A DNA stretch of 64,000 bases from an uncultured Eubacteriales bacterium (GTDB taxonomy: Bacteria; Bacillota; Clostridia; Oscillospirales; Oscillospiraceae): contig UQZA01000002.1 in NCBI GenBank assembly GCA_900545515.1, positions 31,345-95,344 on the forward strand. Reading direction: 5' to 3'. The notes beneath the pieces are model-generated. The model searched no databases. It had not been told where the DNA came from and saw only the letters and a list, made by a program, of their open reading frames with translations. A program made the translations under genes and the position numbers. Positions 1 through 62,141 of this stretch are shown in pieces (positions within the stretch are counted from its first letter, which is position 1; each line of letters begins with the position of its first letter).

Positions 1-897
1 GCTTTTCATAAAGTCACAGGTGATATCCTGGGACAGCCCGTGAAAGAGACCGGGTTCTGTGGCGGAAGGGGAGAATTCTGAGGCCCATTTGGCCCGGAAG
101 TATACCGTCGTGGCCAGGGCAAGAACCGTTTCGGCACTCAGCTCCAGTCCCTCCGCCTGCTCCTGAAGAAGCCCACCGGTCTGCTCGTTGATCCAACTCC
201 GCAGGGCCTGGTTGGTCTCCTTTGATCCCATTTTTCCCTGATAGGTGGAGGCATAATAGGTTTTGGACAGGGTGTCCAAGGTGCTTTGGACGAAGGTTAC
301 GTCTTGATTCAGCCATAACGAAGAAGCCAGAATGCAGGTGGTGGCCCCATCGTTCACATAGTGGGACTGCCACAGGGCCGTGGCCCGGGTTCGCAGGGTC
401 TCCAGGTCCGGTACATCCAGCAGGTCCAGTACCTGCTGGCGGCTATTGCCGTCTGTGAGCTCGGCCAGCATGGCCAGCGCCATGTAGAGGCTGAGGGGAG
501 AGTATACCCGGTTTTCTTCGGTTTGCCCTGCCAGAAACTGGGGGATGGTGGAGGAGAGGAAGGAGCCCAGAGTCTGGTTGCATTGTTTGCTCCATTCCCT
601 CCGCGCCGCCTGGTCCTGATACCAAGCCTCATAGGAGGCCCCAGCGGCATCGGACGACTCGTCCGGATAGGGTGCAGATGCCGGATATTCCGCCTGGCTG
701 ACCGCCTGCACCGTGGGGACCAGAGGGCTTCCACCAGGCCATAACACAACGCCCAGGACGATGGCGGCCACAGCTGCCGCTGCAGTCAGGCCCAGCCAAA
801 GGGGCCGGCGGCGCTTTTTCTGGATTTTAGCGGCTTCCACAATGTGCCGGTCGCTGATTTCCTCCATGGCTTTTGTCCATATTTCGTATTTCATCAT
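1..897 (-). CDS. Membrane-anchored serpin-domain protein, putative ECF anti-sigma partner; 5' part only, the C-terminus lies beyond the window start
   Basis: The minus-strand frame starting at ATG 897-895 (MMKYEIWTKAMEEISDRHIVEAAKIQKKRRRP, then a TM segment LWLGLTAAAAVAAIVLGVVLW) stays open to position 1. It encodes serpin hallmarks (VYSPLSLYMALAMLAELTDGNSRQQ, LRSWINEQTGGLL, TTVYFRAKWASEF). Its start overlaps the upstream sigma-factor stop (ATGATGA). It is absent from the ORF track because no stop codon falls inside the window. Confidence 0.6.
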   Translation of the reverse strand, partial: MMKYEIWTKAMEEISDRHIVEAAKIQKKRRRPLWLGLTAAAAVAAIVLGVVLWPGGSPLVPTVQAVSQAEYPASAPYPDESSDAAGASYEAWYQDQAARREWSKQCNQTLGSFLSSTIPQFLAGQTEENRVYSPLSLYMALAMLAELTDGNSRQQVLDLLDVPDLETLRTRATALWQSHYVNDGATTCILASSLWLNQDVTFVQSTLDTLSKTYYASTYQGKMGSKETNQALRSWINEQTGGLLQEQAEGLELSAETVLALATTVYFRAKWASEFSPSATEPGLFHGLSQDITCDFMKS

Positions 898-1445
898 ACT
901 GCTCCTTCCTGTTCCAGATATTGCTTGAGTCGACTGCGGATGCGGTGCAGCTGCACGGAGACATGGTTTTCCGTTATGCCCATTTGCCTGGCAATCCACG
1001 AGACAGAGTCGGAAAACCAATACCGCCGGAGAAACATCACCCGGCTTTTCCTGTCCAGGGTGTCCAGAAAGCAGTCCAGCGTCTGACCCAGTGCCTGCGC
1101 CGACCAGGTCTCCTCGGCGGAGGGAGCGGCCAGGCAGCCCTCCAGCTCTACCAGGGGGAGATTCCGGCTTTCATCCCGCCTTTGGGCGTGATTATGGCGG
1201 TAGCGGTTCAGGGATACATTCCGGGCAACCCGGCAGACAAAGGCCAGCAGGGGATTGGGCCGGTGGGGCGGGATGGCGTTCCATAGGCCCAGGTATGTAT
1301 CGTTGACACACTCCTCCGCGTCCTGGGGGTTTTCCAGGATATTTCGGGAAATCTGAAAAATCAGCCCCTGGTATTTGGCGGCCGTTTCCGGGATGGCCTG
1401 TTCTGAACGCTGGAAAAACAGGTCCACAATCTCTGCATCTTCCAC
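894..1445 (-). CDS. RNA polymerase ECF-type sigma-70 factor
   Basis: 183-aa ORF with region 2 (DTYLGLWNAIPP) and region 4 (IARQMGITENHVSVQLHRIRSRLK) motifs. RBS AAAGGAGG lies upstream. Confidence 0.85.
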   Translation of the reverse strand: MEDAEIVDLFFQRSEQAIPETAAKYQGLIFQISRNILENPQDAEECVNDTYLGLWNAIPPHRPNPLLAFVCRVARNVSLNRYRHNHAQRRDESRNLPLVELEGCLAAPSAEETWSAQALGQTLDCFLDTLDRKSRVMFLRRYWFSDSVSWIARQMGITENHVSVQLHRIRSRLKQYLEQEGAV

Positions 1446-1657
1446 GGCAGTACCTCCTTTCTCCTACTGATCAACTACCGATTGGAGCTGGCATCTTACA
1501 GGATATTCAAAAATTTTTTGTTTTGGCATGAAAAAGCTGCTGCAAGCCGGACCGGTCAGATCTGCCCACGGAACCCTGCATGAAGTGGAAACCTTCACAG
1601 GGGACATCAAGGGAGTTCTGATTCGCTCACGATTTGCAGCAGCGTTGCTATGCTCCT

Positions 1658-11530: not shown

Positions 11531-12820
11531 CTATTTCTTTTCAATGATCTCAATTCCACCCAAGTATTTTCTTAGCACTTCCGGTACCACCACGGAGCCA
11601 TCGGCCCGCTGGTTTTGTTCTACCATGGCGGGGAAAATGCGGGAGGTGGCCAGGCCGGAGCCATTGAGGGTGTGGACAAATTCAGGCTTACCCGTGGCTT
11701 CCCGGCGGAAGCGGATGTTGCCCCGGCGGGCCTGATAGTCCCGGGCATTGGACACGGAGGAAACCTCTTTATAGCCATTCATGGAGGGAATTTGAATCTC
11801 AATGTCATAGGTCCGTGCCATAGAGGCGGAACAGTCGCCGGCAGCCAGCTTCACCGTGCGGAAATGGAAGCCCAGGTCCCGCACCAGCCGCTCTGCCTTG
11901 CCCACCAACTCTTCAAAAGCCTGATCAGAGTCCTCGGGACGGGTGTACTGAAACATTTCCACCTTGTTGAACTGGTGGCCCCGTACCATACCCCGTTCTT
12001 CCGCCCGGTGGCTGCCGGCCTCCCGGCGGAAGCAGGGGGTATAGGCGAAGAACTTTCTTGGCAGCTCAGCCTCCGGCAGAATCTCACCCCGGTATACGCT
12101 GGCCAGGGCTGCTTCCGCTGTGGGGAGCATATAATGGACCCGGTCATCTGTAGGGTTGGCGATCTTATAGACTTCGTCAGCAAACTTGGGGAACTGCCCG
12201 GCCGTCTCGCCGCATTGGTACTCCAGCATGTGGGGCGGCAAAATAAACTCATAGCCATCAGCTACATGGGCATCTATGAAATAGTTGAGCAGGGCCCACT
12301 CCAGCCGGGCGCCCATTCCCTTGTAAATCCAGAACCCGGAGCCGGCCAGCTTCGTCCCCCGATCATAGTCAATGAGACCCAGATCCAGGCACAGGTCCAC
12401 GTGGTGTTTGGGGGTAAAATCAAAGTGATGGGGCTCACCATAATACCGCAGGGGCTCGTTGTGCTCTTTGCCACCGGGGACCAGATCTGGGTCCGGCAGG
12501 TTGGGAAGACTGAGCATCAGGTTGTGGTATTCCACTTCTACTGCATCCAGCTTTTCTGCGGCGGCGGCAATGGCGGTTTTCAGCTCTGCCATCTCACGGA
12601 AAATGGGGGTGACATCTTGCCCGGCCTTTTTCAGCCGGGGGATTTCCTTGGAGATCCGGTTTTGCTCGGCCTTTTTGGTCTCCGTCTCCACAATTAGCGC
12701 CCGGCGCTGGGCGTCTAGCTCCAAAATCCGGTCCACCGCCTCATCACAGTTCACTTCTTTGGCCCGCAGACCCGCTTTTACCGCCTCCGGGGCTTCTTTG
12801 ATCCGTTTGATATCCAACAT
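11531..12820 (-). CDS. serS: Seryl-tRNA synthetase
   Basis: 429 aa with N-terminal coiled-coil MLDIKRIKEAPEAVKAGLRAK and class II aaRS motifs (FRRE, GSGFWIYKG). Confidence 0.95.
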   Translation of the reverse strand: MLDIKRIKEAPEAVKAGLRAKEVNCDEAVDRILELDAQRRALIVETETKKAEQNRISKEIPRLKKAGQDVTPIFREMAELKTAIAAAAEKLDAVEVEYHNLMLSLPNLPDPDLVPGGKEHNEPLRYYGEPHHFDFTPKHHVDLCLDLGLIDYDRGTKLAGSGFWIYKGMGARLEWALLNYFIDAHVADGYEFILPPHMLEYQCGETAGQFPKFADEVYKIANPTDDRVHYMLPTAEAALASVYRGEILPEAELPRKFFAYTPCFRREAGSHRAEERGMVRGHQFNKVEMFQYTRPEDSDQAFEELVGKAERLVRDLGFHFRTVKLAAGDCSASMARTYDIEIQIPSMNGYKEVSSVSNARDYQARRGNIRFRREATGKPEFVHTLNGSGLATSRIFPAMVEQNQRADGSVVVPEVLRKYLGGIEIIEKK

Positions 12821-12831
12821 GATAATTCACC

Positions 12832-13497
12832 TCATGGGTTAGTTTCCCTGGTATTTTCCTGGGGCTCCACCGCCAGGGGGAGTAGCTCCTGATACAGGGT
12901 CTTGCCTTCTGCATCTAAATTTTCTGCCAAAGGCTTCAGATCCTTCATGGCGGTCAGAAATTCCTCGGTATCTTCCTGATCTAAAGCCCGCTGCGCAGAC
13001 AGCAGCAGCTCATAAGCTTGGACCTGTTGCTCCTGCTTTGTGCATTGGGCTTGTAGGGCCGCATGGCTCTCCTGGAGCGATGTGTTGGTCTCTTCCAGCT
13101 GGCTGTAATTCTTGCTTGTCTCGTCCAGGTCAGCCTGGAGCTGTACCACCTGGTCCTGAAGGGCCTGGTTGGCCTCCAGCAGCTCCCGGTTGTTGTCCTG
13201 AAGCTGCTCTGCCCGGGACAAAGCGCTGTTGGCGTTTTGGTTTAGCTCCGAAATGGTTTGCCGGGAGTCCTTTTGCTGAATCAGGAAGGAGAGCAGTACC
13301 AAAACAAACGCCACGCCAAACAGAAAGGCGATGTAAGTCATGAGAGCCCGATTGCGGTTGGGGGATGTGGGTTTTTCCCCAGGTGGCTCCTGGGCGGGGG
13401 GCGCGCTGGCCTCCGGTTGCTCCTCGATCAGCTGGCCCATTTTTTCCAATAGCTCGTGGCCGGATTTGGCCGGTTTTTTCTCTGGCTGCTTTTTCAT
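12832..13497 (-). CDS. Coiled-coil membrane protein of unknown function, translationally coupled to parB
   Basis: 221 aa: N-terminal charged region, one TM (YIAFLFGVAFVLVLLSFLI), then a long Q/E/L-rich coiled coil. Its start overlaps the parB stop (ATGA). Confidence 0.55.
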   Translation of the reverse strand: MKKQPEKKPAKSGHELLEKMGQLIEEQPEASAPPAQEPPGEKPTSPNRNRALMTYIAFLFGVAFVLVLLSFLIQQKDSRQTISELNQNANSALSRAEQLQDNNRELLEANQALQDQVVQLQADLDETSKNYSQLEETNTSLQESHAALQAQCTKQEQQVQAYELLLSAQRALDQEDTEEFLTAMKDLKPLAENLDAEGKTLYQELLPLAVEPQENTRETNP

Positions 13498-44715: not shown

Positions 44716-44835
44716 CAAAATGAAAAAGGGCACACTTACCGCCTGCAGTAAGTGTGCCCAGACGGCCGGCAAGAAATCCAGACGCCCTGCTCCCCCGTGG
44801 TGCTCCACTTCTTCCGTCAGTTACAGGGCGTCAGC
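44716..44835 (-). ncRNA. ZTP riboswitch (pfl motif) with intrinsic terminator as expression platform, leader of the pur operon
   Basis: Minus-strand read: CUGUAACUGACGGAAG...GUGGAGCACCACGGGGGAGC...CCGGCCGUCUGGGCA. Consensus is GACUGGCG...GUGGGAAACCACCGGGGAGC...CCGGCCGCCUGGGCA. It is followed by the 12-bp hairpin GGGCACACUUAC-UGCAGGCG-GUAAGUGUGCCC, then UUUUU, then AAGGAGG and ATG(purE). Confidence 0.75.
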
Positions 44836-61879: not shown

Positions 61880-62119
61880 ATGGTGAAGATCAGACTGAGA
61901 AGAATGGGTGCAAAGAAGGCTCCGTACTACCGCATTGTGGTTGCCGACTCCCGGTCTCCCCGGGATGGCCGCTGCATCGAGGAAATCGGCGCCTACAATC
62001 CCCTGACCGAGCCCGCTACCATTACGGTGGACAGCGAAAAGGCGAAGACCTGGATTCAGAACGGCGCCCAGCCCACCGATACAGTCCGGGGCCTGTTGAA
62101 GAAGGCCGGTGTGCTGTAA
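61880..62119 (+). CDS. rpsP: 30S ribosomal protein S16
   Basis: [25 protein letters not shown]. Confidence 0.95.
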
Positions 62120-62141
62120 GATGGCCGAAGGAGCGTTGGCT

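Follow-up and report, generated by a model that had tools for sequence, protein, structure and literature searches.

Why should a gut bacterium tie a sigma factor to a protease inhibitor displayed at its surface? The question is raised by one end of a 64,000-nucleotide stretch of DNA from an uncultured Eubacteriales bacterium of the Oscillospiraceae (GenBank contig UQZA01000002.1, positions 31,345 to 95,344; this whole stretch is the window in what follows), where a gene for a sigma factor of the extracytoplasmic function (ECF) family overlaps the start of a gene for a single-pass membrane protein that ends in a serpin. A preliminary description of the window had proposed that the serpin acts as the sensor of an anti-sigma-like partner. 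The parts of this proposal that could be put to computational test came out favourably: the serpin possesses its reactive-centre loop, its linkage to the sigma gene is systematic, and the cytoplasmic tail of the protein co-varies with the sigma factor and behaves as a module; binding, inhibition and the nature of the signal are the parts that we infer. We consider it highly probable that the two proteins make a genuine sigma/anti-sigma pair. The whole chain, namely a self-regulated pair in which the serpin would be both sensor and main output, with a protease as the trigger, we favour by a modest degree of confidence, a little above an even balance.

The upstream gene is an ECF sigma factor. 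Its product matches Pfam Sigma70_r2 (E 3e-11) and Sigma70_r4_2 (E 4e-7), as well as TIGR02937, sigma70-ECF, in NCBIfam (74 bits, cutoff 43); it has sigma-2 and sigma-4 domains only, its length is within the 170-200 residues or so of the class, and a candidate regulator, judged by position, lies directly downstream, as it does in 39 of 40 related loci. The overlap between the sigma stop codon and the next start, reported earlier as ATGATGA, is borne out by the coordinates (Table 1). The TGA at 896-894 is found within ...GCA GTA TGA TGA AA..., so that the serpin gene may begin either with the ATG at 897-895 (a four-nucleotide ATGA overlap) or with that at 894-892 (an overlap of a single nucleotide); the gene call on sister contigs takes the second, from which residues are counted here. 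The two open reading frames also overlap in 39 of 40 sigma-linked loci of other species, 21 times by the identical ATGA, the remaining locus having a gap of 30 nucleotides. As for the distribution of the window sigma factor itself, an exact-match look-up of the protein finds it in thousands of assemblies, and four long contigs share the order Rrf2, cysK, nifS, nifU, sigma, serpin, followed by a convergent M23 peptidase gene.

The partner has the layout that the preliminary description gave it, a short cytoplasmic N-terminus (counted here as 31 residues), one transmembrane helix and an extracytoplasmic serpin. From the second ATG its frame runs open over 298 codons and reaches base 1 of the window, where the gene exits. 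The KKRRR that precedes the hydrophobic stretch suggests that the N-terminus stays inside, and a model made with AlphaFold 2 places a helix at residues 37-51, within the predicted transmembrane segment. A single helix with the N-terminus in and the serpin out is, as predicted, the topology of anti-sigma factors of the RsiV, RsiW and RseA type. Between helix and serpin lies an N-terminal extension present in all members of this serpin family, in alignments of which Y70, P71, Y76 and P77 are invariant; in the model residues 63-66 form a strand and residues 84-103 a helix, with a predicted local distance difference test score (pLDDT) of about 80.

Is this a whole serpin, or the remnant of one? 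Completing the gene, the check that had been proposed at the outset, gives an answer. The complete protein, recovered from sister contigs (L001:10552-11973), has 473 residues and carries a hinge, DEEGCTAASYTV, together with a flexible reactive-centre loop and a DRPFLF motif; a degenerate or loop-less pseudo-serpin, which we had considered, is thereby ruled out. The part truncated by the window edge matches Pfam Serpin PF00079 over residues 120-297 (E 1e-27), and in a phmmer search of the PDB the alignment with solved serpins covers residues 114-473 from one end to the other, conserpin being the best (E 3e-36), with antithrombin, PAI-1, tengpin and alpha-1-antitrypsin coming next. This clade is only 21-29% identical to solved serpins. 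The AlphaFold 2 model, built from 116 homologues, has a mean pLDDT of 81, with a confident serpin body and low values at loop residues 430-442 after the hinge, and Foldseek relates it to serpins at E 5e-30 with a target-normalised TM-score of about 0.8. Judged by alignment and model together, the fold is that of a complete serpin. The PDB alignment sets the hinge, E420-E-G-C-T-A-A-S-Y-T, at P17-P8, and predicts Ala at P1 and Gly at P1', then MPPEEE, then DRPFLF. A small predicted P1 residue (Ala, Ser or Thr) would suit elastase-like enzymes, which are the targets of the few gut bacterial serpins that have been characterised (PMC8201313).

What carries the argument beyond one genome is the company that the serpin keeps. 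With each species represented by a single genome, a scan brought up relatives in 510 genomic stretches; 80 serpin loci were retrieved, and their gene starts, N-termini and neighbours were derived anew. In 41 of them the protein begins with the motif xxLYEAIGxIDDxxLERSEK, followed by a basic cluster and a transmembrane helix, and an ECF sigma gene stands directly upstream in every case (41/41), encoding a sigma factor of the same clade as that of the window (38-63% identity, in other species). Two further loci (L067:944-2946 and L078:3447-5545) join the same serpin ectodomain to another tail, MKRYxxANxxIHAPEELKE; both have a sigma gene upstream, from a different ECF clade with SigC/SigE-like NCBIfam hits (and, in the L078 reading frame, Pfam r2 and r4_2), which indicates a second, independent sigma-serpin pairing. 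None of the 35 loci where the serpin bears a lipoprotein signal (32 loci) or a plain transmembrane anchor without the motif (3 loci) has an ECF sigma gene upstream; two loci with truncated serpins were left out of this count. The contrast between 43/43 and 0/35 (Fisher p 5e-23, with loci that are not phylogenetically independent) excludes the incidental adjacency of sigma and serpin that would have emptied the proposal of its content. The two-gene module is kept in dozens of gut species and, according to database records, its carriers are numerous Clostridia of the gut, Oscillospiraceae and Lachnospiraceae among them, living in humans, mice, poultry and ruminants. Cultured carriers include Flavonifractor sp. 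AGMB03687 (L008), Pseudoflavonifractor phocaeensis An507 (L009) and Lachnotalea sp. AF33-28 (L020). A rough neighbour-joining tree built on the serpin core intermingles sigma-linked with lipoprotein forms and requires about 10 parsimony changes. Anchor types appear to have been swapped repeatedly among serpins.

A few loci show a more elaborate order, due to local duplications. At L055:1930-5398 the sigma gene precedes two tandem tail-motif serpins and overlaps the first copy, while at L064:947-4688 and in L053 a plain-transmembrane serpin comes first, then the sigma gene, then a tail-motif serpin bearing a long acidic cytoplasmic linker.

The tail, rather than the serpin, is the part that seems to belong to the sigma factor. 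Among 44 pairs of sigma factor and partner, identity between sigma factors is better correlated with identity between tails (Mantel r 0.74, p 2e-4) than with that between ectodomains (r 0.54), and the partial correlation between sigma and tail when the ectodomain is controlled for is 0.66. The closest relatives of the window sigma in a database of 5.8 billion proteins (51-61% identity) are mostly without a link to a serpin, whereas most serpin-linked sigma factors are 45% identical to it or less. We sampled seven of these non-serpin loci (L085, L086, L088, L089, L091, L092 and L093). In all seven the overlapping downstream gene encodes a single-pass protein of 205-270 residues with the same tail motif, which reads xA[IL]GxIxDxxIxEA in the non-serpin partners and a(M/L/I)xEIsDxxIxEA, followed by a cluster of K/R, in the window gene (compare DAMSEISDGHICEAAR in L089 with KAMEEISDRHIVEAAK in the window), while the ectodomains are diverse, unrelated and unannotated. 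Found on seven partners that are not serpins, and co-varying with the sigma factor, the tail is to all appearances a modular cassette that moves together with its sigma factor. From its position, topology, specificity and co-variation we would expect it to have anti-sigma activity, putatively by binding the sigma factor. A profile made of tail and transmembrane helix, run against the same 5.8-billion-protein database, returned 23 short fragments, with no ectodomain information. As to the surroundings of these relatives, L086 and L087 are found in conjugative-element-like contexts with a relaxase and a serine recombinase, and in L091 and L093 the tail-motif gene is followed by an Amidase_6 gene.

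How would such a pair be expressed? An autoregulatory promoter of the ECF type would combine an AAC-like -35 element with a CG-rich -10 element. Upstream of the window sigma gene we find TGTAAGAT (1500-1493), about 12 nucleotides, then CGGT.. (1480-1477), with a Shine-Dalgarno sequence after it. Upstream of the sigma gene in other species there is a bipartite motif, cTGTAAgAT-N13-gcGAC/GTTGA-T.ATAgGGT, located 14-64 nucleotides before the start codon in clear cases and plain by eye in the alignment; with a position weight matrix trained on that same set, 37 of the 38 upstream regions exceed the 95th percentile of shuffled sequences. We take the motif to resemble, presumably, the consensus of SigX in Bacillus subtilis. 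No promoter of the sigma-70 type was found in the region upstream of the sigma gene. Downstream of the serpin no gene is conserved across loci, the module being inserted in varied contexts, and a looser form of the promoter pattern, applied to 12 loci, gave no second copy before a conserved gene. The only other match to the pattern in the window, at 62115-62137 on the plus strand (TGTAAGAT-N-CGTT), spans the stop codon of rpsP together with the ribosome-binding site of the KH-domain gene that comes next; we discard it as due to chance. As far as these comparisons go the conserved unit is made of promoter, sigma factor and tail-transmembrane-serpin protein, and this restriction suggests an autoregulated module whose chief local output would be the serpin itself.

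We may now put these pieces together in a scenario. An ECF-type promoter would drive a self-contained module of two genes, a sigma factor and its single-pass membrane partner. The 31-residue tail, as an anti-sigma segment, would sequester the sigma factor at the membrane, while an inhibitory-type serpin would be displayed at the surface. An extracellular serine protease, probably from the host or from a competitor, would attack the reactive-centre loop or the juxtamembrane linker, and the ectodomain would be removed or remodelled, the site-1 cut being made by the attacker itself or by signal peptidase at an AXA-like site, in the manner of RsiV. An intramembrane site-2 protease would then cut the remaining stub and release the sigma factor, which would transcribe its own operon, renewing both itself and a serpin that can be used only once. 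For the first cut there is a candidate motif 10-14 residues past the transmembrane helix (12 in the window), VQA in the window and mostly AYA elsewhere. It is present at the aligned position in 32 of 39 sigma-linked loci versus 15 of 32 lipoprotein loci (Fisher p 0.0025, again with loci that are not phylogenetically independent), and in RsiV the A/V-X-A site at the same position is the site-1 target of signal peptidase, exposed when lysozyme binds (PMC9044953). By this analogy the motif may be a cleavage site, a lead rather than a finding. A bolder version of the scenario, which we put forward as a tentative and rather doubtful possibility, makes the suicide mechanism itself the signal: each covalent capture of a protease would insert the loop and remodel the domain, free the docked N-terminal extension and expose the AXA site to signal peptidase, then to a site-2 protease, so that one sigma factor would be liberated per serpin consumed. 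If that were true, the module would be a stoichiometric circuit in which use of the inhibitor calls for its replacement. It would also sense host serine proteases directly, elastase for instance, and do so in a wide range of gut Clostridia.

Several observations weigh against this construction, and we gather them here. The N-terminal 60 residues or so of the AlphaFold 2 model are of low confidence. Its hinge (423-430) is drawn as a strand, and the PDB entries that it matches best are serpins in cleaved or latent form; the model is thus loop-inserted-like and uninformative about native metastability. The hinge itself has a hydrophobic residue (C, V, L or I) at P14 and Tyr or Phe at P9, which is unusual among inhibitory serpins. 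Roughly one lipoprotein paralogue in two has the AXA-like motif as well, and the model makes its segment a strand of the folded domain; the motif may have a structural role rather than be a cleavage site. Classical anti-sigma domains (class I ASD/ZAS, such as zf-HC2, RskA and RsgI_N) have an HxxxCxxC zinc motif, or else a domain of three to four helices that takes up some 60-90 residues; the tail, with 31 residues and no Cys/zinc motif, is far shorter, and is modelled as two short helices (4-11 and 15-22) at low confidence. Going by sequence and model, it is not a classical anti-sigma domain. Nor does it belong to a curated family: when the tail and seven partners, non-serpin or of the second clade, were compared with Pfam and NCBIfam at E values up to 1, nothing rose above threshold; the only sub-threshold matches, neither of them from Pfam, were NF052375, 'antisigma', with 16.7 bits and NF038083 with 23 bits, where the cutoff is 100 for each. 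A last difficulty, the separate lipoprotein serpin gene of L088, suits a serpin that is an output as well as one that is a sensor.

That difficulty leads to the main competing explanation, unlikely in our view, according to which the tail is indeed an anti-sigma segment while the serpin is only cargo. The sigma factor would be freed by some other envelope cue, such as generic proteolysis or a membrane or cell-wall stress, and the serpin would use the anti-sigma segment as an anchor, the inhibitor being made whenever the stress response fires. The lipoprotein paralogues speak for it. Their hinge (DEEG[VC]TAAAYTV) and loop (xGA up to the predicted P1, then G/A-M/A-PPEEE) are essentially identical to those of the sigma-linked serpins, so that the fused form would keep whatever activity the free-standing surface serpins have; they imply that the basic job of the family is inhibition of proteases at the surface, without signalling. 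At L088:2175-4836 an ECF sigma gene (product 55% identical to that of the window) overlaps the gene of a 270-residue protein with the tail motif, which is followed by the gene of a 417-residue lipoprotein serpin: this may be an unfused, ancestor-like state, in which the serpin is likely an output of the sigma factor. These paralogues and L088 fit the serpin as cargo or output equally well, and the association of the tail cassette with many unrelated ectodomains goes in the same direction. Yet the ectodomain is what receives the signal in characterised single-pass anti-sigma factors such as RsiV (PMC9044953) and RsgI (PMC10328401). Furthermore, the serpin has been joined to two sigma/tail clades, with anchors interleaved on its tree, which argues for selection of the fusion, and no other conserved gene of a regulon was found nearby.

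A second explanation, which we regard as improbable, would keep the sensor and discard the inhibitor: the serpin would be a bait, a substrate or a binding module, a pure receptor cleaved without trapping its attacker, or binding a ligand that is not a protease. The inhibitory consensus consists of Glu at P17, Gly at P15, Thr or Ser at P14 and small residues at P12-P9, with an exposed reactive-centre loop. A hydrophobic P14 instead of Thr/Ser, and Tyr at P9, favour the non-inhibitory view, and by 2021 the characterised serpins of gut bacteria numbered only four (PMC8201313). Against it, the rest of the hinge (E at P17, E at P16, G at P15, T at P13 and A-A-S/A at P12-P10) agrees with that consensus; conservation of P17 Glu, P15 Gly and P12-P10 Ala-Ala-Ala/Ser, together with a loop of normal length, is what one usually sees in inhibitory serpins, and the same loop is kept by the stand-alone lipoprotein paralogues. 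Finally, that the tail and helix are a mere signal anchor, with an adjacency of regulatory value only and a sigma factor controlled elsewhere or not at all, might be argued from a tail of about 30 residues that matches no known anti-sigma family, and is very improbable indeed, as a plain anchor needs no conserved cytoplasmic motif, while this motif is restricted to sigma-linked genes, co-varies with the sigma factor beyond the ectodomain and moves with it, and plain-transmembrane and lipoprotein versions do exist without sigma.

Is there a precedent for a sensor and its sigma factor built in this way? Short anti-sigma factors of class II (the CnrY type) use cytoplasmic segments of one or two helices, on single-pass proteins, to sequester an ECF sigma factor, and CnrY works with a separate periplasmic sensor, CnrX; here the putative sensor domain is fused to the tail. 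There are three other parallels: by analogy, the module would work most like SigV/RsiV, would be built like the SigI/RsgI sets, and would follow a logic parallel to that of the serpin operon of Bifidobacterium breve. In the SigV/RsiV systems of B. subtilis, Clostridioides difficile and Enterococcus faecalis an ECF sigma factor is co-transcribed with a single-pass anti-sigma factor whose N-terminus is inside, the ectodomain engages a host defence enzyme, and the output protects against that very enzyme; RsiV binds host lysozyme, after which it is cut by signal peptidase and RasP (PMC9044953). The present genes, taken by themselves, show the same topology and an AXA-like motif 10-14 residues past the helix. 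They differ by a serpin, that is a covalent suicide inhibitor, in place of a lysozyme receptor, by a cytoplasmic part of about 30 residues, and by an apparent output that is the sensor itself, where SigV directs cell-wall-modifying enzymes. With SigI/RsgI of cellulolytic clostridia, where paralogous pairs are reported to combine one cytoplasmic module with many extracellular sensing domains and to signal by intramembrane proteolysis (PMC10328401, PMC12203970), the likeness is that of a single tail motif found on serpin and non-serpin ectodomains. The difference is that we deal here with a canonical two-domain ECF sigma factor, unlike SigI, and a tail without an RsgI_N match, and that the molecule sensed would be a protease and not a polysaccharide.

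In B. breve the expression of the serpin is protease-inducible and autoregulated (Alvarez-Martin 2012 and Turroni 2010, as summarised in PMC8012564). The same summary has a separate histidine kinase/response regulator pair do the sensing, with the serpin outside the sensor (PMC8012564), whereas in the present module the membrane partner carries the serpin as its own ectodomain, and a sigma factor would be controlled by sequestration. The serpin of B. longum, the siropins, saburopin, miropin and tengpin are inhibitory serpins from host-associated or anaerobic bacteria, those of the gut being directed against elastase-like proteases (PMC8201313), and the P1 Ala predicted here by alignment is likewise a small residue; none has been reported with a fused cytoplasmic tail or a link to a sigma factor. 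The family described here also has a conserved N-terminal extension, as tengpin does. In tengpin, the extension stabilises the native state. The earlier impression that no serpin/sigma system had been characterised is upheld, as we found in the full-text literature no report of a sigma-linked serpin or of a fusion between serpin and anti-sigma factor. The words 'sigma' and 'transmembrane' do not occur in the 2021 review of the gut serpinome (PMC8201313), and serpins are not mentioned in the main text of the ECF reclassification paper.

Pairs of ECF sigma and anti-sigma factors are a major route by which bacteria sense the outside, for which few ligands are known, and a serpin ectodomain, if our interpretation is right, would add proteases as a directly sensed input. 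As the change of state of a serpin is large, irreversible and well understood, the mechanism should be unusually easy to test. Host elastase-like proteases rise in inflammation, and the module may thus be a common commensal route to detect and resist host proteolysis. At a more general level, the tail would define a large anti-sigma-like family that is absent from the annotation provided by Pfam and NCBIfam, and so compact a protease-responsive cassette, made of promoter, sigma factor and sensor, could serve as a biosensor part.

Table 1. Features of the sigma/serpin module in the window (residues counted from the second ATG of the serpin gene)
Feature	Position	Strand	Remarks
ECF-type promoter-like site upstream of the sigma gene	1466..1501	(-)	conserved bipartite motif; ends 20 nt before GTG
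ECF (group 4) sigma-70 family sigma factor	894..1445	(-)	183 residues, GTG start; Pfam and NCBIfam
Shine-Dalgarno sequence GGAAGGAG for the serpin gene	902..909	(-)	within the 3' end of the sigma gene; read from the sequence
Stop/start overlap ATGATG(A)	892..897	(-)	TGA of the sigma gene shares bases with either possible ATG of the serpin gene
Cytoplasmic tail, residues 1-31, putative short anti-sigma module	802..894	(-)	MKYEIWTKAMEEISDRHIVEAAKIQKKRRRP; basic end
Single transmembrane helix, residues 32-52 (L32-W52)	739..801	(-)	21-residue hydrophobic stretch LWLGLTAAAAVAAIVLGVVLW
Juxtamembrane linker and family-specific serpin N-terminal extension, residues 53-113	556..738	(-)	alignments, AlphaFold 2
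V62-Q63-A64, AXA-like motif, candidate signal-peptidase (site-1) cleavage site	703..711	(-)	analogy to RsiV
Serpin core, residues 114-298 of 473	1..555	(-)	hinge and reactive-centre loop beyond the window edge

Beyond the module itself, the neighbouring sequence holds a few features of its own. In L001 the convergent M23 peptidase gene (11961-12944) and the serpin gene share 13 nucleotides at the 3' end of the latter, and this neighbour is unconserved in other species. The sigma promoter is separated from nifU by a long imperfect hairpin with a run of UUUUU after it, at positions 1531-1643 of the minus strand; a stretch of 166 nucleotides has there a minimum free energy of -57 kcal/mol (z -3.3), and the hairpin probably terminates the Rrf2-cysK-nifS-nifU operon. 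Neither this hairpin nor the rest of the sigma/serpin region matches an Rfam family, the sole Rfam hit in the window being a ZMP/ZTP riboswitch (RF01750) at 44749-44834 on the minus strand, with 67 bits for a gathering score of 39.

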